Shown here one piece after another: positions 1-14,506 of a DNA stretch of 20,470 nt. How positions within the stretch are numbered: position 1 is the first letter of the stretch; every line of letters begins with the position of its first letter. The notes beneath the pieces were generated by a model that searched no databases, was not told where the DNA came from, and was given only the letters and a program-made list of their open reading frames with translations. The stretch lies in contig JAKAWH010000054.1 of the NCBI GenBank assembly GCA_021817065.1, positions 1 to 20,470 on the forward strand. Direction: 5' to 3'. The stretch comes from Actinomycetes bacterium (GTDB lineage: Bacteria; Actinomycetota; Acidimicrobiia; Acidimicrobiales; JAKAVM01). The translations under genes were made by a program, and so were the position numbers.

Positions 1-26
1 GACCCCCCAAGGGGCGGATTTCCCAT

Positions 27-101
27 GGTGGCCGTAGCTCAGTTGGTTAGAGCGCCAGGTTGTGGCCCTGGAGGTCGGGGGTTCGAGTCCCCTCGGTCAC
101 C
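27..101 (+). tRNA. tRNA-His (anticodon GUG)
   Basis: Cloverleaf read by hand. Acceptor GTGGCCG/CGGTCAC has 7 bp. D-stem is GCTC/GAGC. Anticodon stem is CCAGG/CCTGG with loop TTGTGGC, giving anticodon GTG. T-arm is GGGGG-TTCGAGT-CCCCT. An extra 5' G (pos 27) opposite discriminator C101 is the His-specific G-1. CCA is not encoded. Confidence 0.9.
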
Positions 102-127
102 CGAGTGAATGCGCAGGTAGGAGGGCA

Positions 128-352
128 TTAATCTCCCTGGGGCGGTTGTCTCCTCGTCTATGTTTTGGCTCTGACCCAACGGGGAACCCGACAACCGGGA
201 GGAGGGTCATCGGTGGCAGGAAGCATCCGCCTGGTCAGGGGCGACGATGTGGGAACTCCGTGTCTGCCTGGGTCGTGATTCTCGGGGAAAAGTGCGCCAT
301 CTGCATCGCAGGTTCCGTAGTACCAAGCGCCAAGCCGAGAGGGACCGGGCCC
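128..352 (+). repeat. Copy A of a ~225-bp direct repeat, 27 bp downstream of tRNA-His
   Basis: Aligns colinearly with 4151..4376. The core from about 183 to 346 (~164 nt) differs at only 3 positions (ggagggtcatcgg vs ggtgggtcatctg; ccgtagtacc vs ccgtggtacc). The 5' 55 nt are ~75% identical with a 1-nt indel. No convincing ORF. Local stems such as CAUCG...CGAUG and CUGC-AUC-GCAG are present. Confidence 0.85.
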
Positions 353-1005
353 GCCTGGTCACCGAACAGGATTCTGCGCCCCGACGATCGCGCCGGGATG
401 AACCCCAGCTCCGCATGGAGCTCCATTTGTACAGCTCTCCGATGGTGACGAACGTCAGCCACGCCCCACCATCGATCTCGGGTCCTACCGACGTCGAGGT
501 CTACGGACCGAAAAAGCAAGGCACCGCCTACAACCACGCCGGCCAGCGCGCCTACAGGCCTCACCCGGCTGTGTGGGCCGAGGCAGGCTTGGCGAGCTCT
601 CGACGTGCTGATCGCCGGTTCAGGACCGTAGCCGCTTGAGGCAGTAACCGGCTACCAAACTGAGGCGATCGCACTGCAGCCGGCATCACGAATCACAACA
701 CTAAACCTCTTGGTCGAGCGCGCCTCGGTTTCGGGTAACCGTCACCCTCTACTGGCCGGAGCCTCCGCACCAGCTACTGGTACCGCTGGTTCGGGAGGTC
801 GGCGGCTTATTCGCGGATCCAGGTCTGACGACATCGTGCGGGACATGGGTATCGACGGAATCTGTATTCCCAGGTGACGCGAATGACCGTCGAGCTCCAC
901 AGGAAGGTCGCCGAGTTCCCCAATCGGGCCCTCATCAATGCCGCACCAGTCATTGCAGGCCAAGAAAAGTGGCCCTTGCCGCACACCGTGGAAGACAATC
1001 GAAAT

Positions 1006-1034
1006 GCTCCCCTCCGCGTCAAACGGAGGGGAGC
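1006..1034 (-). terminator. Candidate intrinsic terminator on the minus strand
   Basis: GC-rich 11-bp perfect stem gctcccctccg / cggaggggagc with a 7-nt loop. On the minus strand it is followed by the U-rich tract AUUUCGAUUGUCUUC. It lies in an ORF-free region. Confidence 0.3.
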
Positions 1035-1356
1035 CAACCCGAGAGCGTTGCGAGTCACTCCGAATCACAGTCGGCACTGCACGGCAGCACCTCCTGCTGC
1101 GACGGTTCGGGGAAACCCCTGCCCTCACCTGTATTTGTCGCCGAAACAGACCGGGATCTTTCACCCCGTGGGGAAAAATCGGCACACGAGCTGAAGAATC
1201 AGTTGGTGGGTGATCACACTGATGGATGACTTGACGCCGCCGCTGACTTCTCATATGCTTCGCGTCGGGTAGACGAAGTCGAACTGCGACGGCGGCAGAG
1301 TCAACCAGTTGAATAACGGTTGACCGGGGAGCATTGCGTTCCAGAAGGGCAGGACG

Positions 1357-2103
1357 ATGACGCACCTATCATGGCTGCGTGCAGCACGAGCAGCTGGCTG
1401 CGTGGCCGCAGCTGGGGCCCTCCTCTTGTTATCCACTGGTGCTGCTTATGCTGGGCAGTATGGCACCTACAATGGTGCTGCTGCAGCGCGCTACGCGGAC
1501 ACCTACTGGAGCAATTACAACATCGACTACGCCAGCTTCGGGGGGACAGACTGCACCAATTTTGTTTCCCAGGCACTCAACTCAGGCCCAGGTAATGCGG
1601 AGGACTATGGCAAGCCATGGGAACCGACGTATCTCCAGGAGCCGTTATACAACTACCCCTCGGTGGTTGATAACCCGGGTGATCTCTCATACTGGTATGG
1701 AGAACTGACTGGTTACGGTGCCAACTACTATTCCAACACATGGACTGTCGCTCCAGACCTCTTCTATTTCCTGACCTTTTACGACGGTTCTAGCTCCTAT
1801 TTCACCTATTCCTTCGACTATTATCAGAACGGAACTGCTCCTTCGATACCACCTTCAAATGCCCTGGGCGACCCCTTCTTCTACAATTGGGATGCAAGGG
1901 ATAACGGTGAGGGAATCTACGGTATCGATCACGCCACCATCACCGCCTATGGAGGCTGGGGTACCGACGGCACCTGGGGAACCGAGGTCGATGCCCACGA
2001 CTCCAATAGACAGCACGTGTTCTGGACGTTGAGATTCGTGCAAAATCCATCGAATCCCTATTGGCCCACGGAGGAGGTATTCACCGATCATGTCGTTAGC
2101 TGA
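1357..2103 (+). CDS. Secreted putative amidase, Amidase_6 / NlpC-P60-related domain
   Basis: N-terminal signal peptide MTHLSWLRAARAAGCVAAAGALLLLSTGAAYA|GQ. Motif YADTYWSNYN...FGGTDCTNFVSQAL matches the catalytic-Cys core (GGDCTNFVSQ) of the putative amidase (Amidase_6) family. Tyr/Gly/Asn-rich mature region with a C-terminal His (IDHATITAY). RBS-like gaagggcagga lies upstream of the ATG. Confidence 0.75.
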   Translation: MTHLSWLRAARAAGCVAAAGALLLLSTGAAYAGQYGTYNGAAAARYADTYWSNYNIDYASFGGTDCTNFVSQALNSGPGNAEDYGKPWEPTYLQEPLYNYPSVVDNPGDLSYWYGELTGYGANYYSNTWTVAPDLFYFLTFYDGSSSYFTYSFDYYQNGTAPSIPPSNALGDPFFYNWDARDNGEGIYGIDHATITAYGGWGTDGTWGTEVDAHDSNRQHVFWTLRFVQNPSNPYWPTEEVFTDHVVS

Positions 2104-2887
2104 TATGAGCCACCAGTCCACTAACCGCCGACGATTCGGCCAACGAGCGCGAGGAATGCTTGTGGTGAGCGCCGTGGCAGCGGGCGCCGGCTTCGGTGCG
2201 TCACTGGGGGTCGCGCACGGACAAGGAAATGACAGTGCCAAAGAAGCCGCTGTGAAGCAAGTATTCCTGGAAGCCCAAGTTCTTGGGGAGAATGAAGGGG
2301 CACCAGCTCCAGCAGGTCTCGCCAAATCCGCCGATTGGGCAGTCCATGGAGATTCCCTCGTCCACACCAAGAACGGCGACCGCCTCGAGAACCCCGGCCA
2401 CTCTTGGGTCGACGACTCCGGTCATGTATTGGGACTCTCAGCCGCAGAGGTCGCCCAGATCACCTCCCAGCAGGATGCAGAGGCAGATGCCATCCTCGCT
2501 CCTGGCAAGATCCGCACCAACTACCTTAACGCAATCAATGGCTGGGCAAAGAAAGGTGGTGAATTGGTGTCGTCGATGAGTCCTGCTGACGCGGTGTCGG
2601 CCATCAATAGCGTGGGTCCTGTTGGCGGTGCCGAAGTGGTCAAATGGGAGAGCATCGATATTGCTGGCACCACCGCTAGCGTCCACGCGGTGATGAAGAT
2701 TTGGAACGAGAACGACCAAGCCACACTCGACGGTCAGGGGAACCTACATGTAGCCACTGAGGTGGCATCCGGATACGGCGACTCCTATGCTACCTTGCAA
2801 GAGACTCCCTCCGGCACCTGGCAAATCGTTTCCATGGATACAGAACCTTCCGATGCCAACGGCAATACTGACGTCGCTTCCGGGTAG
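2090..2887 (+). CDS. Secreted hypothetical protein with a possible Tat signal (NRRRFGQ then a hydrophobic stretch)
   Basis: ATG overlaps the stop of the upstream gene by 14 nt, which suggests an operon. N-terminus has an RR motif followed by VVSAVAAGAGFGASLGVAHG. GC3-rich codon usage consistent with neighbouring genes. No recognisable catalytic motif. Confidence 0.6.
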   Translation: MSLADMSHQSTNRRRFGQRARGMLVVSAVAAGAGFGASLGVAHGQGNDSAKEAAVKQVFLEAQVLGENEGAPAPAGLAKSADWAVHGDSLVHTKNGDRLENPGHSWVDDSGHVLGLSAAEVAQITSQQDAEADAILAPGKIRTNYLNAINGWAKKGGELVSSMSPADAVSAINSVGPVGGAEVVKWESIDIAGTTASVHAVMKIWNENDQATLDGQGNLHVATEVASGYGDSYATLQETPSGTWQIVSMDTEPSDANGNTDVASG

Positions 2888-3575
2888 CTCGACAAGGACT
2901 GCTCCCTCCGGGCGCCGACGGGGACGACTATCCAAGCTTTGCAGAACCAGCTTCGTCTGGGCCGTGGTAGCCCTGGTGACCGCCATCGTTATTGTCGTAG
3001 TTATACCCAAGCAAAGTGCGACGACAGCTGCCGGGGAGAAGTCGGAGGTCCGCGCCGCTTTAGTACGTGCGGACACCCTGCGACTCATGATCGGTTCTCC
3101 CTGGCTCGCATCTCCCTCTCATTGGTCCATCGCAACCGGCACGTCCAGGGCTTCGTGGAACACCGGTGTTGGCACCAAGCCGATCCATCCATCATCAAAC
3201 CTGCTCGGAGCGATGGGCCGTGAACAGGGCTCTCTCATCAGCCAGTGGATGGGATCGTCAGTGGCAAGCAGTACTCGGTCACAGTTGGCTTCGGCCATCG
3301 GGGTCGACACCTCACGGGAGATCTTCCCTTGGGTTGCTCAGGTCTACGGTGTGTCCACGCAAACCATTGATATATCGGGCAACCAGGCAGGAATCCGGGC
3401 GAAGGTCTTTGCATGGCAGGGAGGTACGGTTCCCACCAGAAGCGGTCCCAAGCTTCTCAAATTGCGAATGGAGCTCGACGAGTACGCAACGTTCAAAATG
3501 GTTGGTGGGCACTGGCGAGAAGTGAGCGATCGAAGCTACGAGCACCCAGTCAGCGGGAATCCGGGGAACCTGTAA
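2787..3575 (+). CDS. Single-pass membrane-anchored hypothetical protein (alternative start ATG 2853)
   Basis: Long ORF in operon with the two upstream genes. Hydrophobic helix FVWAVVALVTAIVIVVVI follows a basic stretch RRRGRLSKL. No in-frame ATG lies downstream of the preceding stop, so the start must overlap the upstream gene. Confidence 0.5.
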   Translation: MLPCKRLPPAPGKSFPWIQNLPMPTAILTSLPGSSTRTAPSGRRRGRLSKLCRTSFVWAVVALVTAIVIVVVIPKQSATTAAGEKSEVRAALVRADTLRLMIGSPWLASPSHWSIATGTSRASWNTGVGTKPIHPSSNLLGAMGREQGSLISQWMGSSVASSTRSQLASAIGVDTSREIFPWVAQVYGVSTQTIDISGNQAGIRAKVFAWQGGTVPTRSGPKLLKLRMELDEYATFKMVGGHWREVSDRSYEHPVSGNPGNL

Positions 3576-3604
3576 ACCACGGGGGTACATCGAAGCCACT
3601 ATAG

Positions 3605-3634
3605 CCATCTCCGAGTATATCGACTCGGAGATGG
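3605..3634. promoter_or_regulatory. Perfect 12-bp inverted repeat CCATCTCCGAGT-(ATATCG)-ACTCGGAGATGG overlapping the start codon of the zinc-ribbon gene
   Basis: The arms are exact reverse complements. ATG 3631 lies inside the right arm. No U-tract follows, so an operator or translational hairpin is more likely than a terminator. Confidence 0.45.
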
Positions 3635-4011
3635 CGGGTGTGGGATGCTCGGTACCTATGCCCAAGACACCCCCAGCACGACTTGCCTCCTACGAGCACC
3701 GCTACCGAGATCTCGCCCGGCAGCTCTCTGAGATCGGCTGGATCGCTTCGGGCAGCGTGGCGTACCGCCCCGAGCGCTGTGGCAAGTCGAACTGCGCCTG
3801 CCGCTCGGACCCCGCACGGCTACACGGGCCCTACTGGCACTTCACCGCCAAGGTCGACGGCAAGACGGTGAACAAGCGCCTTTCCGAGCGTGAAGCCCGC
3901 CTATATCAACAGTGGATCGCCAACTACCGCACGGTGCGCGCTCTCCTCGGCGAGATGCGCGAGATCGCTGCCAAGGCCCAGGCCCTGATCCTCGCCGAGG
4001 ATGACGTCTGA
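3631..4011 (+). CDS. Small CxxC/CxC zinc-ribbon hypothetical protein (conserved actinobacterial DUF-type)
   Basis: 126 aa. Motif RCGKSNCACRSD...HGPYWHFTAKVDGKTVNKRLSEREARLYQQWIANYR resembles a widespread small actinobacterial protein family of unknown function. The C-terminus is predicted helical. Confidence 0.6.
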   Translation: MAGVGCSVPMPKTPPARLASYEHRYRDLARQLSEIGWIASGSVAYRPERCGKSNCACRSDPARLHGPYWHFTAKVDGKTVNKRLSEREARLYQQWIANYRTVRALLGEMREIAAKAQALILAEDDV

Positions 4012-4150
4012 CTCCGCCCGCAACAGGCAGTGTGCCGCTTCACCTGAAACCCGCCGCCCCACCTCACGCCGCCGGGCCTGAAGTGCTTGAAACACAGGGC
4101 GAATCGGTCATCCGAGCACGTGTGAGTGCCATTTCACGCTTGATTCAGGA

Positions 4151-4376
4151 TTAAGTTCCCTGGGGCGGTTGTCTGCTCGTCTTTTTCTGGCTCTGACCGA
4201 AATAGGTGACCCAACAACCGGGAGGTGGGTCATCTGTGGCAGGAAGCATCCGCCTGGTCAGGGGCGACGATGTGGGAACTCCGTGTCTGCCTGGGTCGTG
4301 ATTCTCGGGGAAAAGTGCGCCATCTGCATCGCAGGTTCCGTGGTACCAAGCGCCAAGCCGAGAGGGACCTGGCCGC
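4151..4376 (+). repeat. Copy B of the ~225-bp direct repeat
   Basis: See copy A. Same orientation, 4023 bp downstream. Identity decays at both edges. Confidence 0.85.
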
Positions 4377-4420
4377 AAGTGGAGCGGGGGAGTGCCCAAC
4401 CCGATTGCCGACGCCGAGCT

Positions 4421-4497
4421 GGCCGATCGAGGGCCGATCGAGGGCCGATCGAGGGCCGATCGAGGGCCGATCGAGGGCCGATCGAGGGCCGATCGCG
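4421..4497. repeat. Tandem 11-bp repeat (GGGCCGATCGA)x~7
   Basis: ggccgatcga then gggccgatcga x5 then gggccgatcgc. Each unit carries the palindrome CGATCG. The 11-bp period is close to the DNA helical repeat. Intergenic, ~150 bp upstream of the XRE gene. Confidence 0.9.
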
Positions 4498-4515
4498 ATA
4501 ATGATAGTATTATCG
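4496..4515. promoter_or_regulatory. AT-rich inverted repeat CGATAAT-GATAGT-ATTATCG, a candidate operator or -10 region upstream of the XRE regulator
   Basis: 7-bp arms are exact reverse complements. A strongly AT-rich island in GC-rich DNA that contains TAGTAT. About 130 bp upstream of ATG 4643. Confidence 0.4.
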
Positions 4516-4642
4516 AATGGCGCAGAAAGCCTGGTCGGTTGAGTTTCACCCGGCCTGCGGGAAGTGGGCTGGCAGACGAGAGATTCGAAGGGCACTTGGC
4601 AAACATGGAACCCGACAAGCAACTACACAGAAGAAGGCCACG

Positions 4643-4969
4643 ATGAAGATGAACCAGTGGGAGAAGAAGGTCCTCGCCAAGCCGGGCGCGCCTCAGCGGG
4701 TAGATGATATCGAAGACGAGCTTCGGCTCGCCACCGCCCTGACGGCGCTTCGAGAAGAGTCGGGCCTCAGCCAGCGGGAATTGGCCGAACGGCTCGGAGT
4801 TTCTCAGCCCAGGATCGTGGCGATCGAACATGCTCGCAATGTCACTCTCGACGTTCTCGAACAATACCTCGAAGGGCTCGGAGGGACTCTGGAGGTCTCG
4901 TTCTTCAAGGGGAACCGCAAGACCCGGCTCTTGGGGAATCAACGCCCGAGCGGCCGCAAGGCGAGCTGA
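4643..4969 (+). CDS. XRE-family helix-turn-helix transcriptional regulator
   Basis: HTH_3 signature ESGLSQRELAERLGVSQPRIVAIEHARN. RBS aagaagg lies 5 nt upstream of ATG. The ORF track extends further upstream to 4517 but no RBS or homology supports that. Confidence 0.75.
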   Translation: MKMNQWEKKVLAKPGAPQRVDDIEDELRLATALTALREESGLSQRELAERLGVSQPRIVAIEHARNVTLDVLEQYLEGLGGTLEVSFFKGNRKTRLLGNQRPSGRKAS

Positions 4970-5079
4970 CGACTCGCGGACCTTGGAAGTTGGGCGAAGA
5001 CCCAATATTTCACCCAATAGATCCGTTTGGTGGCGTTCTCCACCGAACCTTCCGCCCCGCGGCGTGGCACAGTAGGAGT

Positions 5080-6411
5080 GTGAGCCGCGTCGCCCCGGCC
5101 GAGGTCCACGAACGCCTCGGCAAGCACCTCCTGGTGGACCGCTCGTGCCTGGTCTACGACGCCGAGCGCAGCCAGGGCTCGTGGGTGGTGGACGAGAGGA
5201 CTGGAGCGCGGTACCTGGACCTGAATACCTTCCACGCGTCCTCACCCCTTGGGAGCAATCCACCCGGCATGGTGGACGACCCGGAATTCATGGATCTGCT
5301 GGGCAGGATCGCAGCCAACAAGCCGGCCAATCCGGACATCTACTCCACCTATCTCTGCGAATTCGTCGACACCTTCGTGAGGGTTCTCGGTGACCCGGAT
5401 CTCCCGCACCTCTTTTTCGTCGAAGGGGGTGCCCTGGCAGTCGAGAACGCGCTCAAAGCAGCCTTCGACTGGAAGAGCCGTTTCAACGAAGCCAGCGGAC
5501 GCGATCCTGCCCTGGGGACCCGAGTGCTCCACCTGAGCAGCGCCTTCCACGGGCGCAGCGGCTACACGCTTTCGCTGACCAATACCGATCCCGCCAAGAC
5601 GGATAGGTTCCCCACCTTCGATTGGCCGCGTGTGGAGGTGCCTGCGATTCGATTTCCTCTCGATCGGCACCGGGACGAAGTCCTTGCAGCCGAACGGCGG
5701 GCCTTGGACCAGGCCCGGGAAGCTTTCGATCGCTTCCCTCACGACATCGCGTGTTTCATCGCCGAACCGATCCAGGGGGAAGGCGGCGACAATCACATGC
5801 GCCCGGAATTCCTTCAGGCGATGCAGCAAATGTGCCATGAGAACGATGCATTGTTCGTACTCGACGAAGTCCAGACCGGAGTCGGCCTCACCGGGACGCC
5901 GTGGGCGTACCAGCAGCTCGGCCTGGAACCCGACATCGTGGTGTTCTCGAAAAAGGTGCAGCTGGGCGGGATCATGGCTGGACGCCGCCTCAACCGGGTT
6001 CCCGGCAACGTGTTCCGGACGAGGGATCGGATCAACTCGACCTGGGGAGGTGGTTTGGTGGACATGGTCCGGTCCCGGCGGATCCTCGAGATCATCGAAC
6101 GCGACGGTGTCTTTGCTCATGCCGCAGAGACCGGCGCCTGGTTGGTGGCACAGCTCGATGCCCTCCAGGGCAGGCATGTGCACTCGGTGAGCAATGTCCG
6201 GGGACGCGGCCTGATGACGGCGTTCGACCTGCCGGACCGGTCCTCCCGGGACCTGTTCCTCTCGATGCTCCGTGATCGTGGGCAGGTCCTGGCACTTGCC
6301 TGCGGTGAGCTCTCGGTTCGCTTCCGCCCGGCCCTCACCGTCACCCGGGAGGAGCTCCAACATGGGCTCGACGCTCTCGACCGTTGCCTGAAAGCCCTGG
6401 AGTCCGGTTGA
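5080..6411 (+). CDS. lat: L-lysine 6-aminotransferase (lysine epsilon-aminotransferase), class-III PLP aminotransferase
   Basis: Strong recalled similarity along its length to mycobacterial/streptomycete LAT: PHLFFVEGGALAVENALKAAFDWKSR, HGRSGYTLSLTN, DIACFIAEPIQGEGGD, FDEVQTGVGLTGTPWAYQQL, INSTWGG and FSKK (PLP lysine). Start assigned to GTG 5080 with aggag immediately upstream. The ORF could begin as early as TTG 4990. Confidence 0.85.
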   Translation: MSRVAPAEVHERLGKHLLVDRSCLVYDAERSQGSWVVDERTGARYLDLNTFHASSPLGSNPPGMVDDPEFMDLLGRIAANKPANPDIYSTYLCEFVDTFVRVLGDPDLPHLFFVEGGALAVENALKAAFDWKSRFNEASGRDPALGTRVLHLSSAFHGRSGYTLSLTNTDPAKTDRFPTFDWPRVEVPAIRFPLDRHRDEVLAAERRALDQAREAFDRFPHDIACFIAEPIQGEGGDNHMRPEFLQAMQQMCHENDALFVLDEVQTGVGLTGTPWAYQQLGLEPDIVVFSKKVQLGGIMAGRRLNRVPGNVFRTRDRINSTWGGGLVDMVRSRRILEIIERDGVFAHAAETGAWLVAQLDALQGRHVHSVSNVRGRGLMTAFDLPDRSSRDLFLSMLRDRGQVLALACGELSVRFRPALTVTREELQHGLDALDRCLKALESG

Positions 6412-7907
6412 CCACCTACCGGTCTCTCAATCCTTCGCACCTCGACGACGTTGTGGCTGAGGTCACTCTCGCCACCGCCGATGAGCTGGTTGCGGCGTGC
6501 TCGGTAGCCCGGCAGGCGCAAGGCCTTTGGGCAGGGACTCCACCCCCCGTGCGCGGCAAGGTCATCTCGGCGGTCGGCCGAATCGCCGAGTCCAACAAGG
6601 AGGCCCTCGCCCGCTTGGTAACCAGGGAGGTCGGCAAGCCTTGGACCGAATCGCTCGGGGAGGTGCAGGAGATCATCGACACCTGCGATTTCTTCCTCGG
6701 CGAGGGACGACGACTATACGGGCAGACCGTGCCGAGCGAGTTGCCCGACAAGCAGCTCTTCACCTACCGGGTGCCCGTGGGGGTGACCGTGGTGATCACC
6801 GCCGGAAATTTTCCGGTCGCGGTTCCCTCCTGGTACCTGGTCCCTGCACTCCTGTGCGGCAATGTCGTGGTGTGGAAAGCGGCGGAGTACTCGGTTGCCT
6901 GTGCGCAGGCCCTTCGGGACATCTTCGTGGCAGCCGGTGTTCCCGATGGCGTCTTGCAGCTTGTCGTCACCGATGGCGCCACCACCTTCGGCGGGTTGGG
7001 CCAGGGCCTCGATGCAGGCGTGATCGACAAGATCGGATTCACCGGCTCCAGCGCGGTCGGAAGGCGCATCGCAGAGCTGGCAGGGCGTCACCTGCAGTCT
7101 CCGTGCCTGGAACTAGGCGGTAAGAACCCGATGGTCATCGCCCCTGATGCCGATGTCGAGCTTGCGGTCGAGGGGGCGCTCTTTTCCGGATTCGGCACCG
7201 CCGGGCAGCGGTGTACTTCCCTGGGCACAGTCATAGTCCATACATCGAGGCACGATGAATTCGTCGAGCTTTTCGATCGGAGGGTATGTAGCATTCCGGT
7301 GGGCGATCCCAGCCGGGATGTAGTGATGGGTCCTCTGATGAGCGACGTGTTCGCCAGACGGTTCGAGGAGTACCTGGGCTGGCTGGAGCCCCATCACCGG
7401 CTGCTGGGATCGGGCGGCATTGGCCGGATCGGCCCGGACAATCCGCGGAGCGGATTCGTGGGGGACCCGGATGCGGGCCTGTACTACCATCCGATCATCG
7501 TCGACGGCGTCCTGCCGGACGATCGGATCTTCCGGGAGGAGTGCTTCGGGCCCATGGTGGGTGTGGCGACCTACCGGGATCTCGGCGAGGCGATCGAACT
7601 GTCCAACGCTCCCGGATACGGGCTGACCGCCTCCGTCTACACCAATGATCCCAAGACAGCGTTCCGCTTCCGCTCTGGGGTGGGAGCAGGGATGGTCAGC
7701 ATCAACAATTCGACCTCTGGAGCCGAAGCACACCTTCCATTCGGAGGCAACGGCCGGAGTGGCAACGGGAGCAGGCAGTCGGGTACGTGGGCACTCGACC
7801 AGTTCACTCGCTGGCAGGCGGTGAACTGGGATTACTCGGGTCAATTGCAACGAGCACAGATGGATGTCGGAACGGTGGAGCCCGATTTCGGCTACCGACT
7901 TCCCTGA
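6408..7907 (+). CDS. pcd: Piperideine-6-carboxylate (alpha-aminoadipate semialdehyde) dehydrogenase, ALDH superfamily
   Basis: Aldehyde dehydrogenase motifs: VWKAAEYS, GFTGSSAVGRRI, catalytic LELGGKNP and CTS (GQRC), EECFGP. Classic lat-pcd gene order. TTG start 6408 forms a TTGA overlap with the lat stop (TGA 6409-6411). Alternative TTG at 6384. Confidence 0.8.
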   Translation: MTTYRSLNPSHLDDVVAEVTLATADELVAACSVARQAQGLWAGTPPPVRGKVISAVGRIAESNKEALARLVTREVGKPWTESLGEVQEIIDTCDFFLGEGRRLYGQTVPSELPDKQLFTYRVPVGVTVVITAGNFPVAVPSWYLVPALLCGNVVVWKAAEYSVACAQALRDIFVAAGVPDGVLQLVVTDGATTFGGLGQGLDAGVIDKIGFTGSSAVGRRIAELAGRHLQSPCLELGGKNPMVIAPDADVELAVEGALFSGFGTAGQRCTSLGTVIVHTSRHDEFVELFDRRVCSIPVGDPSRDVVMGPLMSDVFARRFEEYLGWLEPHHRLLGSGGIGRIGPDNPRSGFVGDPDAGLYYHPIIVDGVLPDDRIFREECFGPMVGVATYRDLGEAIELSNAPGYGLTASVYTNDPKTAFRFRSGVGAGMVSINNSTSGAEAHLPFGGNGRSGNGSRQSGTWALDQFTRWQAVNWDYSGQLQRAQMDVGTVEPDFGYRLP

Positions 7908-10140
7908 GCTTCCACAGATGAATGCGCGAGCCGAAGCGGTCGATTCGCATTTTCTCTCCGCAGCGAGGGCTCTCACCGCCGTCGAGCATCGCCACCCGGA
8001 CGCACCGGTGCGCGACGGCACCACGCTCACCGGGCGACGAGCGCGGGAGCTGTTCGACGCGCAACTCGCCAGCCGCCACCTCGATCTGGTCGCCCGGGAA
8101 CTGCGTGCGGACGGCTCCGGGTATTACACGATCGGGTCCAGTGGTCACGAGGCGAACGCGGCTCTCGCCGCGGCACTCCGGCCGGATGACCCGGCGCTGC
8201 TCCACTACCGATCGGGTGCTTTTTACGTGGCGCGGGCTGCCCAGCGGGAGTGTACCGATCCCATTCGCGACGTGCTGGCGGGAGTGTGCGCGGCTGCTGA
8301 TGAGCCGGTCGCCGGGGGGCGGCACAAGGTTTTCGGCCATCCGCAGCTCGCGGTGATACCGCAAACCTCGACCATCGCGTCCCACTTGCCCCGGGCAGTG
8401 GGGCTGGCTTTTTCAATCGAGCGAGCTGCACGGCTAGGCGTACCGTCACCATGGGATGCGGACTGCATCGTGGTCGCAAGTTTCGGCGACGCGTCGGTGA
8501 ACCATTCCACCGCGGCGGGGGCGATCAACACCGCATGTTGGATCGCCTACCAGGGCCTCCCCCTTCCCTTGTTGCTGGTGTGCGAGGACAACGGCTTCGG
8601 CATCAGCGTTCCCACTCCACCCGGGTGGGTGCGGGCCGCGTCCTGCTCCCGTCCCGGATTGCGCTACATCGAAGCCGACGGTTGCGATATCGCCACAACA
8701 TGGGATGCCGCGGTCGAGGCGGTGTCCTACGTGCGTAACCGGCGTGCACCGGCTTTTCTTCACCTTTCGATGGTCCGATTCCTCGGTCATGCCGGGGCCG
8801 ATGCAGAGGTCGCGTACCGCACTCCGGCAGCACTGGCGGCTGATCTGGAACGGGACCCCTTGGTGAACACTGCTCGGCTCCTAGTCGAGTCCGGCCAGGT
8901 CGATCCCGGCCAGGTGATCGCCGCCTACGAGGCGATGCGTTCGACGGTGGGCGACACCGCGCGGAAGATGACCCGGGCACGCCACCTGGAAAGTGCCGCG
9001 GAGATCATGGCGCCGCTCGCTCCGCGGCATCCCGACAGGGTGCTACAGGTTGTTGCAACGCCGCCCGCCCCTGCACTGCGCCTGCAAACCCACCGGGGGC
9101 GCCTTCCCGAGGAGCAGGGTGGGTTCACCCTCGCACAATCGGTGAATGCCGCCCTGGCCGACGGGCTCGCGTCCCACCCGAACATGATCGTGTTCGGGGA
9201 AGACGTCGCGCTGAAGGGTGGCGTGTACGGAGTCACCGGCGGGTTGGTCCGGCAGGTCGGAGCTGCCCGTATCTTCGACACCCTCCTGGACGAGCAATCG
9301 ATCCTCGGCCTGGCTCTCGGAGCGGGCCTAGCCGGACTCCTTCCGGTTGCCGAGATCCAGTACCTAGCCTACTTGCACAATGCGGAGGACCAGGTCCGGG
9401 GAGAAGCTGCGACCCAGCAGTTCTTCAGCAACGGCCAGTTCCGCAATCCGATGGTGGTTCGTGTCGCGGCTTTTGGTTACCAGCAGGGATTCGGCGGTCA
9501 TTTTCACAACGACAACTCGGTCGCCGTCCTGCGGGACGTTCCCGGTGTGGTTATCGCCTCACCATCGCGCCCCGACGACGCCGCCGCGATGCTGCGGACC
9601 TGCCTGGCTGCTGCCTCGGTCGACGGATCGGTGTGCGTGTTCTTGGAACCGATCGCCCTATACCATCGCCGCGACCTGCACGACGAGGGTGACCGCGGCT
9701 GGCTGGACCGTTACGCGCCTCCCTCCGAATGGGCCTCTTCTCACGTCCCGATCGGCTCGGCGCGCGTCCACGGCGACGGGGAAGACCTGTGCATGATCAC
9801 CTTCGCTAACGGTGTTCCGATGTCGCTTCGTGCGTCGCGCCGATTGGCAGATTCGCGAATCGGGGTACGGGTGGTGGATCTTCGCTGGCTTGCACCACTC
9901 CCGGTGCGAGATATCCTGCGCGAAGCAGAAGCGACTGGTCGGGTGCTGGTCGTCGACGAAACTCGGCGGACTGGGGGAGTCTCGGAGGGGATTCTGGCCG
10001 CTCTGAACGGTGGAGGATTTGGCGGGACGGTTAAGCGGATCGCCTCGCAAGACAGCTTCATCCCGCTGGGGGATGCCGCCTCGCACGTACTGGTGTCCGA
10101 GGACCAAGTGGTCTCGGCTGCCCGGGAACTGTGCTCGTAG
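7864..10140 (+). CDS. TPP-dependent 2-oxoacid dehydrogenase E1 component, fused alpha/beta subunits
   Basis: N-terminal half has the E1-alpha TPP-binding motif GDASVNHSTAAGAINTACW...LLLVCEDNGFGISVP. C-terminal half has the E1-beta/transketolase-like pyrimidine-binding region FGEDVALKGGVYGVTGGL...RIFDTLLDEQSILGLALG and a C-terminal domain. Overlaps the pcd 3' end by 44 nt (or starts at ATG 7918). Confidence 0.75.
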   Translation: MSERWSPISATDFPELPQMNARAEAVDSHFLSAARALTAVEHRHPDAPVRDGTTLTGRRARELFDAQLASRHLDLVARELRADGSGYYTIGSSGHEANAALAAALRPDDPALLHYRSGAFYVARAAQRECTDPIRDVLAGVCAAADEPVAGGRHKVFGHPQLAVIPQTSTIASHLPRAVGLAFSIERAARLGVPSPWDADCIVVASFGDASVNHSTAAGAINTACWIAYQGLPLPLLLVCEDNGFGISVPTPPGWVRAASCSRPGLRYIEADGCDIATTWDAAVEAVSYVRNRRAPAFLHLSMVRFLGHAGADAEVAYRTPAALAADLERDPLVNTARLLVESGQVDPGQVIAAYEAMRSTVGDTARKMTRARHLESAAEIMAPLAPRHPDRVLQVVATPPAPALRLQTHRGRLPEEQGGFTLAQSVNAALADGLASHPNMIVFGEDVALKGGVYGVTGGLVRQVGAARIFDTLLDEQSILGLALGAGLAGLLPVAEIQYLAYLHNAEDQVRGEAATQQFFSNGQFRNPMVVRVAAFGYQQGFGGHFHNDNSVAVLRDVPGVVIASPSRPDDAAAMLRTCLAAASVDGSVCVFLEPIALYHRRDLHDEGDRGWLDRYAPPSEWASSHVPIGSARVHGDGEDLCMITFANGVPMSLRASRRLADSRIGVRVVDLRWLAPLPVRDILREAEATGRVLVVDETRRTGGVSEGILAALNGGGFGGTVKRIASQDSFIPLGDAASHVLVSEDQVVSAARELCS

Positions 10141-10174: not shown

Positions 10175-10312
10175 CCTCAGGGGCGCCGGGTCCGGCAGGT
10201 GCGAAGGACGTTCCCTCAGGGGCGCCGGGTCCGGCAGGTGCGAAGGAGGTTCCCTCAGGGGCGCCGGGTCCGGCAGGTGCGAAGGACGTTCCCTCAGGGG
10301 CGCCGGGTCCGG
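10175..10312. repeat. 39-bp tandem repeat x3.5 (cctcaggggcgccgggtccggcaggtgcgaaggacgttc) between the convergent E1 and thioesterase genes
   Basis: Copies at 10175, 10214, 10253 and a partial at 10292. One substitution (gacg/gagg) in copy 2. The last partial copy overlaps the final codons of the minus-strand thioesterase gene. Confidence 0.9.
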
Positions 10313-10986
10313 AGGCGGTGGGCGGGTATCACCGCGAACTCACCTTCGGCTTCGCAACACGTGTGTCCCTCCTGGATCAACTTCCCTCGGCTGATCACCC
10401 GCCGCTCGTCTTTGGCAACCACCTCGGCCTCGAAGCGGGACTCGATCCCGATCAGGGTGGGGCGGAGATAGCGGACGGTCAGGCATACGGTCGGACCGGA
10501 AGTACCGGCGATCTGATTGGCCGCGGTGAGAACGATGTCGAAGGTGGAGGCGATCACCCCTCCATGAACCCACCCGGGCCCGCCCTCGTAGGCGGTGGTG
10601 AAGTGGGCGGTGCCGATCGCGAGCGGTGGGTCGAATGCGATGGTCACCGGCAGTGCGATCGGATTGAACTGGCCGACCACCGGGTCGTAGGGCATCGCTC
10701 CGTGCATGATGGTCCCGGAAAAAGGCTGACCGTCCGTCTCTCCAACCCCGGCCTTCGCTCCGGTCCCTTCTGTCTCTCCAACCCCGGCCGTCTCTCCGGT
10801 CCCTTCTGTCTCTCCAACCCCGGCCGGGTCGACGAAACGGGGGATGGGCGTATCGGGCACGAAGGAGCCCAGGAGGTCGGATATAGCGTCGATGCGGGAG
10901 ATCGCATCGGTGAGTGCTTCGGGCGGAGCAGCGCTGGTGACCGCACGGTCGATGAGGCTCCGGAGCGATTCGGCCAATCCGAACAT
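10294..10986 (-). CDS. PaaI/4HBT-family hotdog-fold thioesterase with an internal Gly/Glu/Thr-rich tandem repeat
   Basis: Motif HGGVIASTFDIVL (the conserved HGG of PaaI-type thioesterases). Start set at ATG 10986 (MFGLAESL) with ggaagg 5 nt upstream. The track ORF extends to 11085. Contains in-frame repeats AGVGETEGTGET. Confidence 0.7.
   Translation of the reverse strand: MFGLAESLRSLIDRAVTSAAPPEALTDAISRIDAISDLLGSFVPDTPIPRFVDPAGVGETEGTGETAGVGETEGTGAKAGVGETDGQPFSGTIMHGAMPYDPVVGQFNPIALPVTIAFDPPLAIGTAHFTTAYEGGPGWVHGGVIASTFDIVLTAANQIAGTSGPTVCLTVRYLRPTLIGIESRFEAEVVAKDERRVISRGKLIQEGHTCCEAEGEFAVIPAHRLRTRRP
10738..10825. repeat. In-frame 36-bp coding tandem repeat (2.4 copies) inside the thioesterase gene
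   Basis: ctctccaaccccggccNtcNctccggtcccttctgt repeated at 10738 and 10774, with a partial at 10810. Encodes GVGETEGTGETA-type 12-aa units on the minus strand. Confidence 0.85.
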
Positions 10987-12894: not shown

Positions 12895-14409
12895 TCAATC
12901 CTCGAGGGTCACCCGCCACTCGTAGAGGCATCCGGAGGGACGTCGCTCCACCACCGACAATTCTCCTCCGTGTTCTCGGGCTCGGCTGGCGAGCCGGTTC
13001 AGCCATCGTGCCGATGCGGGCCCCTCGGGAATGCCGACCCCGTCATCGGAGACCGAGACGACCAGAGATAGGGCATCCACGGAGATGTCGACGCCCACCC
13101 GGGTGGCCATCGAATGGCAGGCGATGTTGTGGAGGATGTCGCCCAACGCTTCCAGGAGCGCATGTCGCAACTCGGCGGAGATGTGGGAGTCGATGGGGCC
13201 GGACCAATGAAGGGTCGGCTGGAACCCCAGCTCGATGGCAGCGTGGTCCACCATGTCCCGTACCCGAGTGGTGACCGGTACCGTGCTCAGGGGGGCATGG
13301 GTGAGGTCCTCGATCTCCCGCTCCAATTCCACGATCACGTTGCGCAGATCTTCCGAAGTTGTCTCGACCCGCTCGCGCACAATTCCTGGAACCAGGGTGG
13401 CGAGCCGATCCAGACGGGCACCGATCTTGTGGAGGGTGGCGATTACCACGTCGTCGAGGTCACTGGCGATCCGATGTTGATCGCTGACCAGCCGGGAGAC
13501 CGCGAGCTGGTTCCGGGTTCGATCGGCCACCATCGCCACTGCCACGGTGGAGGAGAAGATCTCCAGCAAGGTCTGCTCCAGTTCGGTGAAATCCGGCTGT
13601 CCCGGGGCACGGACGATGGAGAGTGCTCCGATCGCCTCGCCGTCGGCCGCGATCGGCACGACGATAGCGGGACCCAGACCGAGTGCTGCCCCATCGGGGT
13701 GGACGTTGTCGGAAAGGGCGAGATCGTGTATTCGTACTATTTCCCCGGTCTCGTAGGCATAGCCGGCGGCGCTGGAACCAGGCTCCATGTCCAGGCCGGT
13801 GAGATATGCGTAGTCCTCGTCGTCCGCACCGGCGATGACCATATGGCCGAGTCGATGGCTGGGAATCGACACGGTTCCCAGCTCGGCTCCGAGGAGGAGA
13901 CGGGCCTCCCTGGCTATCTGGGCGTAGATCTCGCGGGGAGTGAGGGCCGCCAGAAGCGCCCGGTTGATCTGGCTGACCGCTAGCAGGAGCAGCTCCACCC
14001 GGCTCGCTTCGCTCACGTCGCGCACGAAAGCCCCCACGAAGCGCTGACCGCCAATTTCTATCGGAGCAAGACTTACGTCAATAGGGAAGGTTGTCCGATC
14101 GCTCCGTACTCCGGAGATCCGCAGGCCGCTTCCCATCGGTCGACGATAGGGATCGGCTGCAAAGCGGCTCCGATGGTCGGCATGGGCCGACCGTAGGTCG
14201 GTTGGGATAAGTTCCTCGACGGACATACCGGCCAAGCCACCTGGACCGTAGCCAAAAAGTACCTCGGCGGCTGGGTTGCACCGGGTGATCGTCCCGTCTT
14301 GGTCGACCACCACGATCCCGTCCGGCATAGCTTCGAAAAGAGCAGCCAGGCCGGGAAGCGCCTCGATCGCCGCTCCGCCGGACGTGAGGTCGCCGGGAAA
14401 GCCGAACAT
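12895..14409 (-). CDS. PAS-GAF sensor histidine kinase (HisKA_3 + HATPase_c; partner would be a NarL-type response regulator)
   Basis: PAS domain (PDGIVVVDQDGTI...FGY). GAF domain. H-box RIASDLDDVVIATLHKI (HisKA_3). C-terminal ATPase with DDGVGIP and GGEL motifs. Start set at ATG 14409 (MFGFPGDL). The track ORF starts at TTG 14439. Confidence 0.8.
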   Translation of the reverse strand: MFGFPGDLTSGGAAIEALPGLAALFEAMPDGIVVVDQDGTITRCNPAAEVLFGYGPGGLAGMSVEELIPTDLRSAHADHRSRFAADPYRRPMGSGLRISGVRSDRTTFPIDVSLAPIEIGGQRFVGAFVRDVSEASRVELLLLAVSQINRALLAALTPREIYAQIAREARLLLGAELGTVSIPSHRLGHMVIAGADDEDYAYLTGLDMEPGSSAAGYAYETGEIVRIHDLALSDNVHPDGAALGLGPAIVVPIAADGEAIGALSIVRAPGQPDFTELEQTLLEIFSSTVAVAMVADRTRNQLAVSRLVSDQHRIASDLDDVVIATLHKIGARLDRLATLVPGIVRERVETTSEDLRNVIVELEREIEDLTHAPLSTVPVTTRVRDMVDHAAIELGFQPTLHWSGPIDSHISAELRHALLEALGDILHNIACHSMATRVGVDISVDALSLVVSVSDDGVGIPEGPASARWLNRLASRAREHGGELSVVERRPSGCLYEWRVTLED

Positions 14410-14506
14410 CAGCGAGTCTCTTCCCGGATGCCCGCGCAACAGAAGCCGAACATCAGCGAGTCTATTCCCGGATGCCCGCGCAACAGAAGCCGAACATCAG
14501 TGGTGG
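14401..14506. repeat. 44-bp tandem duplication (2.4 copies) at the junction of the two kinase genes
   Basis: gccgaacatcagcgagtctNttcccggatgcccgcgcaacagaa at 14401 and 14445, with a partial at 14489. It duplicates the RBS-ATG-MFGF region of the downstream kinase. On the minus strand the two mini-ORFs (12 and 15 codons incl. stop) start MFGF. Their starts overlap upstream stops as TGATG. Confidence 0.85.

Follow-up and report, generated by a model that had tools for sequence, protein, structure and literature searches.

Classical contingency tracts lie between the -35 and -10 elements or inside an open reading frame, where they change spacing or reading frame, and iterons are typically roughly 17-22 bp long. 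Toxin-antitoxin (TA) modules with a GP49-domain toxin are arranged toxin first (PMC5906591), and within its own operon HigA3 of M. tuberculosis, likewise from a GP49-type module, binds the -10 box at an AT-rich pseudo-palindrome (PMC7340258). In M. tuberculosis, TANNNT stands 7-12 bp upstream of transcription starts and a -35 consensus was not found; TGN makes promoters stronger, and 32 of 37 TA pairs are leaderless (PMC3898074).

In this study, we analysed a stretch of 20,470 nucleotides of actinobacterial DNA (the window) in which a perfect 11-bp tandem array abuts an AT-rich dyad, upstream of an XRE-family gene and an operon for lysine catabolism (Table 1). The array and the dyad are adjacent but unrelated features. 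We consider it probable that the array is a neutral, slippage-prone variable-number tandem repeat (VNTR) at a rearrangement scar, and that it adjoins a decayed HigBA-like module with a conserved operator and leaderless promoter, in which the XRE protein probably still represses itself.

Table 1. Features of the locus (window coordinates) and box sequences at the homologous loci.
Feature	Position	Strand	Sequence	Basis or remark
tRNA-His	28-102			
Direct repeat copy A, 225 bp	127-351			Starts 25 bp after tRNA-His
Direct repeat copy B, 225 bp	4150..4374	+		Repeat search and alignment with copy A
Unique DNA, 46 bp, separating repeat copy B from the array	4375..4420	none		Copies A and B diverge after 351 and 4374
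Perfect 11-bp tandem array	4421..4497	none	GGCCGATCGAG x6, then GGCCGATCGCG	Tandem Repeats Finder (repeat unit GGCCGATCGAG), motif positions, allele comparison
Expected position of a -35 hexamer	4482..4487	+	TCGAGG, from the array	17 bp upstream of the -10
AT-rich dyad box, 20 bp	4496..4515	none	CGATAATGATAGTATTATCG	Conserved upstream of the toxin start in homologs
Candidate extended -10, TGA + TAGTAT (TGnTAnnnT)	4502..4510	+	TGATAGTAT	Geometry and comparison with homologs
Gp49/HigB-like toxin remnant, 42 codons, fused in frame to the antitoxin ORF	4517..4642	+		Homology to L125
XRE-family (HTH_3/HTH_37) HigA-like antitoxin, 108 aa, orphan	4643..4969	+		Pfam, PDB, homologs
Box of L125 and L154			TGATAATGATATCATTATCA	Perfect palindrome, 10/10
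Box of L152			CGATAATGATAGCATTATCA	
Box of L156			TGATAACGATAGTGTAATCG	
Box of L158			CGATAACGCTATCATTATCG	
Box of L162			CGATAATGTCATCGTTATGG	
Box of L163			CGATAATGCTATCGTTATTG	
Box of L164			CGATAATGGTATTGTTATCA	

Tandem Repeats Finder (TRF) reported 4421-4495 as a repeat of period 11 with 6.8 copies, 100% matches, zero indels and a score of 150. CGATCG starts at 4424, 4435, 4446, 4457, 4468, 4479 and 4490, which gives seven sites at exact 11-bp spacing, and the seventh unit (GGCCGATCGCG) continues directly into the dyad. The first-pass annotation had described seven 11-bp units, each with a CGATCG, in a block with repeat copy B (4150-4374) on one side and the XRE gene (4643-4969) on the other; TRF and the motif positions confirmed the coordinates and the description, and the placement is correct as well. 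Allowing at most one mismatch, the unit occurs nine times in the window against 1.5 expected, and seven of the nine lie inside the array. The array is present in NCBI, ENA and Logan assemblies and is therefore no assembly artefact. Its copies are homogeneous and head to tail, like those of a VNTR or slippage-prone minisatellite.

The number of units differs between near-identical genomes on constant flanks. Contig DAHVPN010000026.1 of the metagenome-assembled genome (MAG) GCA_027318265.1 (L001) matches the window at 100% identity, and both have seven units; a second MAG, GCA_027388455.1 (L002), has three units, although it agrees with the window at 100% identity throughout 1-4451 and 4465-8129. 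The same three-unit allele is found in an ENA contig assembled by MEGAHIT at k141 (L161), again with 100% identical flanks; one sample may underlie both this contig and L002 (the flanks were aligned over ~8.1 kb for L002 and ~3.4 kb for L161). In addition, a short ENA contig begins inside the array and has at least six units, and the contigs L003 and L004 end inside it; the break of L003, a Logan contig built at k=31, is expected where the sample has at least four units. A strain-variable VNTR had been the fallback of the first-pass annotation, and the comparison of copy number among related strains that it recommended bears this reading out, with seven units in L001 and three in L002 and L161 on otherwise 100% identical DNA. 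This variation is known from short-read metagenome assemblies and comprises two complete alleles (seven and three units). Since the alleles differ by 44 bp, which is not divisible by 3, and gene calling left this tract free of genes, the array is non-coding.

The array might also be real but invariant, with the three-unit form produced by assembly collapse of a seven-unit locus. Short-read metagenome assemblies are the source of the data throughout, and the ends of L003 and L004 within the array indicate that assemblers struggle there. We nevertheless find a collapse quite improbable: the 77-bp array is shorter than both typical reads and the final k-mer of L161 (141) and should be resolved, the three-unit allele is present in an NCBI MAG as well as in an ENA contig, and more than 33 bp of repeat would survive a collapse at k>=31. 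Copy-number variation of a VNTR thus remains our preferred reading of the two alleles.

To the right of the array, the comparison with homologous loci identified a TA module. Gene callers place the XRE start at ATG 4643, and the protein matches HTH_3 (E=4.6e-12), HTH_37 (E=3.8e-10) and HTH_31 in Pfam and, distantly, a solved HigA antitoxin (PDB 6af3_B, E=1.7e-5). A total of 755 homologs were found at E<=1e-10, and the few with source names come mostly from MAGs of Acidimicrobiia or Acidimicrobiales. The homolog loci that we examined share 67-79% XRE identity with the window (L125 and L124 from metagenomes; L152-L159 and L162-L164 from a contig index); the metagenome matches L126-L151 were set aside as uninformative, matching just via the generic helix-turn-helix word REESGLSQ. 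Directly 5' of XRE, every homolog locus examined has a Gp49-family reading frame of 121-142 aa, which was identified by a gene call plus Gp49 match in seven loci, by Pfam in L125 and by translation alone in L164. For the L125 toxin, the matches were PF05973 (Gp49; E=9.6e-19) and a PHROG with a toxin annotation. Genes downstream of XRE vary among these loci, and lat is present at none.

The window has lost most of this toxin gene. Its DNA homology to L125 covers 4497-4569 (the dyad and the first 17 toxin codons) and ~4630-4970 (the ribosome-binding site and XRE), and where L125 has 332 bp between these two stretches the window has 60 bp (4570-4629), so the toxin core of ~275 bp has been deleted and the XRE protein is an orphan antitoxin. 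The three features of a HigBA-type pair were accordingly found in different states: the helix-turn-helix antitoxin is of XRE type, a putative palindromic operator overlaps the promoter (the dyad box with TAnnnT, over nine loci), and the toxin gene upstream of the antitoxin is intact in the homolog loci, while the window keeps just the 42-codon remnant. Judged by these alignments, the locus would be a decayed member of a HigBA-type pair and not a working pair. The remnant and XRE form one 150-aa ORF (4517-4969), and a leaderless transcript could give a 150-aa, N-terminally extended XRE as well as the 108-aa form from the internal ribosome-binding site.

The dyad is the conserved part of the upstream region. 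It consists of 7-bp arms around six bases (CGATAAT-N6-ATTATCG, with GATAGT in the centre), is complementary at 8 of 10 dyad positions and has 30% GC in surrounding DNA of 59-66% GC. When the window was compared with L125, L152, L154, L156, L158, L162, L163 and L164 (nine loci), a box with the consensus YGATAAYG..A...T.AT.. was found 1-4 nt upstream of the start codon of the Gp49 (HigB-like) toxin in all eight homologous loci. The multiple alignment contains 12 invariant columns, 10 of them inside the box (G4497, A4498, T4499, A4500, A4501, G4503, A4506, T4510, A4512 and T4513), and DNA upstream of the box is unalignable. Complementarity of the dyad ranges from 6 to 10 of 10 positions across the loci. 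A scan of viral contigs for the box gave chance matches in AT-rich phage DNA and nothing else, and L167, the one viral toxin relative (47% identity), carries another palindrome. Because position and sequence are conserved upstream of related loci, nine in all, the earlier reading of the AT-rich inverted repeat as an operator or -10 element is supported. Binding of the XRE protein to the box is suggested by analogy with HigA3.

The box also has the geometry of an actinobacterial promoter. TAnnnT is found at the box position in eight of the nine loci and is preceded by TGn in seven; its last T lies 7-10 nt from the start codon, which leaves no space for a Shine-Dalgarno sequence. In the window, the last base of the extended -10 is 7 nt upstream of the ATG at 4517, implying a leaderless transcript. 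Five of the eight homologs have TTGCNN exactly 17 bp upstream of the -10, while the window does not, and three homologs have no TTGC -35. An E. coli-style promoter scan of 4000-5100 returned zero promoters, so the promoter call rests on comparative data and actinobacterial rules. The model is not uniform over the homologs, given that L162 has no TAnnnT at the aligned position, L154 departs at the start codon and three loci are without TTGC. Taken together, 4496-4515 probably represents the operator and extended -10 leaderless promoter of a toxin-first HigBA-like module. In L154 (2075-2100), TCG stands in place of GTG or ATG at the aligned toxin start codon, and the gene caller chose an ATG within the operator box; this toxin may use a different start or be impaired.

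The array, by contrast with the box, has no counterpart at the homologous promoters. Neither this array nor any other repeat stands upstream of the box in the eight homologous TA loci (0/8; XRE identity 67-79%), where the DNA in that position is unrelated to the window, and 4375..4420 has zero match to the TA-module homologs. Homology to L125 begins at 4497, so that the array starts exactly where the homology of the module ends. Since homology starts at the box and the position of TTGC is filled by the array, the array belongs to junction DNA that displaced the native upstream part of the promoter. The perfect identity of its units points to recent expansion. As single-stranded DNA the array folds on itself at -29.4 kcal/mol (z=-2.2 as DNA and z=-1.5 as RNA, against shuffles), which could stabilise slipped intermediates, a modest effect. 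We also considered whether the unit had been copied from the deleted toxin gene. CGATCGAGGG is present in the toxin genes of L154 and L155, but this was attributed to chance: in a shuffle test, 9% of shuffled units gave a match of at least 10 nt, and the share was 40% when the units had a CGATCG core.

These results bear on a protein-binding role, in which the CGATCG sites would be bound by a regulator, by a replication or partition protein, or by a CGATCG/GATC-specific methyltransferase or reader. In favour of such a role, successive palindromes follow one another at regular intervals of about one helical turn, and the array adjoins a gene for a DNA-binding protein. The first-pass annotation had proposed iterons or a cooperative regulator array with every site on the same face of the helix. 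The spacing of about one turn stands, but at 10.5 bp per turn a period of 11 bp drifts by ~0.5 bp per unit, or ~3 bp and roughly 100 degrees across the array. The proposed function itself is unsupported, as the array is absent from 8/8 homologs, consists of identical units and starts where homology ends. Its absence from the homologous promoters implies that it is not part of the conserved target of the XRE protein, and 100% identical units in unstable number are typical of recent slippage and not of selected sites. Neither an initiator gene nor a cognate regulator with sites kept in homologs was found: no replication-initiator gene was recognised among the neighbouring ORFs scanned, which matched no Rep, ParB or methyltransferase family. 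The 11-bp unit is also shorter than a typical iteron.

The palindrome within the unit is unremarkable, since a 6-bp palindrome of some kind turns up in ~19% of random 11-mer units of matching composition. In the surrounding 25.8 kb, which is the part of this genome that the analysis covered, CGATCG outnumbers every other palindromic hexamer; outside the array it occurs 31 times, where base composition predicts 8.8 occurrences and a Markov model 33.9. It is thus neither avoided nor special locally. Avoidance or enrichment related to restriction-modification gave no signal by the same Markov comparison. The cyanobacterial HIP1 sequence (GCGATCGC) was also dismissed, as the octamer is absent from the array and the organism is an actinobacterium. 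Furthermore, 185,579 species-representative genomes were scanned for four CGATCG sites at 11-bp spacing, which yielded at least 119 loci. Among the matches listed, such arrays occur in many phyla with 4-9 sites each and essentially all-different units, and none has the unit of the window; they are sporadic 11-bp repeats and not a family. We judge a protein-binding role highly improbable, although seven identical palindromes over about -22 to -96 of a promoter could still bind a protein or alter the shape of the DNA.

A further alternative is a contingency locus, in which gain and loss of 11-bp units would tune or switch XRE transcription, and perhaps that of lat-pcd-E1 if co-transcribed; this could act by moving upstream DNA or by changing curvature or UP-element-like contacts. 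The array is hypervariable on identical flanks, is directly 5' of the likely promoter where it fills the -35 position, and no terminator-like site was found in the interval between XRE and lat. However, the tract neither lies in a coding frame nor between the -35 and -10, ending 9 bp upstream of the -10, and the -35 position is occupied by the same array unit in both alleles. At least 31 bp upstream of the box are identical in the two alleles, so copy number should not change the core promoter. Moreover, the -10 is the main determinant of actinobacterial promoters (PMC3898074), and the one at this locus is of the extended type; the variation is known from just two alleles. We therefore regard a contingency locus as unlikely. 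A more specific form, very unlikely in our view, is that changes by whole helical turns beside an extended -10 promoter without -35 tune the orphan antitoxin and read-through into lat-pcd-E1, or that the array recruits a CGATCG/GATC-specific protein. A neutral VNTR is the most likely nature of the array, and, with the native -35 gone, the adjoining promoter may behave unlike those of the homologs.

The relationship between XRE and the operon downstream was also re-evaluated. The lat gene encodes L-lysine 6-transaminase (TIGR03251, E=8.7e-198) and is followed by an aldehyde dehydrogenase, whose best match is piperideine-6-carboxylate dehydrogenase below the curated cut-off, and then by an E1 dehydrogenase. 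The best named matches of lat are from Intrasporangium, Micrococcales and Streptomyces at ~70-72% identity. Its two closest orthologs (L165 and L166, with 78% and 75% identity) keep the lat-Aldedh-E1 trio, upstream of which are NfeD/Band_7 or MFS/unknown genes and no XRE gene. With the trio found without XRE in these two loci, and the XRE homologs found without lat, XRE is not a conserved regulator of lysine catabolism. The first-pass annotation had presented XRE as the regulator preceding the lysine-catabolic operon and had linked XRE, lat and pcd; an XRE gene is missing upstream of the closest lat-pcd operons (78% and 75% identity), and the description was misleading for a protein that is the antitoxin of a decayed Gp49/HTH_37 pair. 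In addition, a motif, GYGTGNCACAGT, lies directly 5' of the lat ribosome-binding site in the window (5062-5073), in L165 (~2338-2350) and in L166 (~7983-7995). It is common to the three lat loci, the upstream DNA of which is otherwise unalignable, and may represent a conserved element in the regulation or the promoter of the lat operon.

On the other side of the array, the two copies of the 225-bp direct repeat (spacing 4023, 91-97% identity) carry the start of a short ORF, MWELRVCLGRD..., and bracket a 3.8-kb segment (352-4149) of lower GC (49-60%) with genes for a secreted Amidase_6 protein, two unknown ORFs and a DUF6788 protein. The bracketed segment looks like mobile-element debris at a tRNA site. 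The peptide MWELRVCLGRD..GK....F.GTKR.AE resembles the arm-binding N-termini of integrases, and no match supporting an integrase 5' fragment was found in Pfam, NCBIfam, PHROGs, a tblastn search against phages or a large protein search. No second copy of the tRNA-His 3' end that would delimit an island was found in the window, and in Rfam two tRNAs reach thresholds and nothing else.

TRF detected three further near-perfect tandem repeats in the same 20-kb window, with units of 39, 36 and 44 bp. First, the 39-bp unit is repeated 3.5 times at 97% identity (10175-10312) just 3' of the E1 dehydrogenase stop codon; the Logan contig L003 ends inside this repeat, which may thus be another VNTR. Second, 36/18-bp tandem repeats (10736-10826) lie inside a minus-strand ORF (~10294-10986) without Pfam match and would encode a repeated peptide. 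Third, 2.3 copies of a 44-bp unit (14399-14500, 98% identity) stand at the junction of two adjacent minus-strand PAS/GAF genes. That this last duplication had split a gene by frameshift was rejected, as in silico removal of 44 or 88 bp leaves the flanking ORFs unfused.

The reading that we favour, a neutral VNTR beside the promoter of a decayed module, runs as follows. Transcription would start at or beside ATG 4517 and yield a leaderless mRNA, and the XRE antitoxin would bind the dyad as a dimer, thereby repressing its own promoter. The toxin core has been lost in this genome, and the orphan antitoxin probably still represses itself. The array (4421-4497) may have arisen recently by replication slippage in the scar DNA between the duplicated 225-bp segment and the module, where it has taken the place of the native -35 region. 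It would expand and contract quickly, with the -10-proximal sequence constant in all alleles.

These findings correct the annotation of the locus from an XRE regulator of lat-pcd to an orphan antitoxin of a decayed HigBA-like module, and suggest that the AT-rich dyad be re-assigned as the operator and promoter of that module. They also provide, for the Gp49/HTH_37 family, a testable operator consensus directly before a leaderless start. This family is large (755 homologs) and mostly uncharacterised, and MAGs of Acidimicrobiia and other actinobacteria contribute many of its members. Strains of this uncultured actinobacterium could be told apart by the 11-bp array, which also explains the short-k assembly breaks at 4421-4497. 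A VNTR and a TA operator are both ordinary kinds of feature. Current understanding is unchallenged, and the practical value is modest.

Compared with known repeat systems, the array resembles plasmid iterons in its directly repeated, regularly spaced short units, but its unit has just 11 bp, the ORFs scanned offer neither a rep gene nor the context of an origin, and its copies are perfectly identical, unstable in number and not kept in related loci. With the simple-sequence promoter contingency loci of phase variation in Neisseria and Haemophilus it shares a hypermutable repeat beside a promoter, whereas the tract of the window is upstream of the -10 and the proximal sequence is the same in every allele. 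It is most like bacterial VNTRs or minisatellites such as the mycobacterial typing loci, which are likewise intergenic head-to-tail repeats of varying copy number; unlike these, its unit is just 11 bp long and perfectly homogeneous, and it is known from metagenome assemblies of an uncultured actinobacterium and not from typed isolates. Relative to known HigBA modules, the operator sequence differs (YGATAAYG..A...T.AT..), the toxin core is deleted, the 42-codon remnant and the orphan antitoxin form a single in-frame fusion, the repeat has replaced the native -35 region, and the XRE protein is just distantly similar to solved HigA (E=1.7e-5). The homologs nevertheless match the toxin-first HigBA modules with a GP49 domain (HigBA2 and HigBA3 of M. 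tuberculosis and HigBA of A. baumannii) in having a Gp49 toxin followed by an XRE/HTH antitoxin. Like the site of MtHigA3, the box is an AT-rich pseudo-palindrome overlapping the -10 (PMC7340258), an analogy by which it may be bound in the same way, and its leaderless-type arrangement is that of most TA pairs of M. tuberculosis (PMC3898074).
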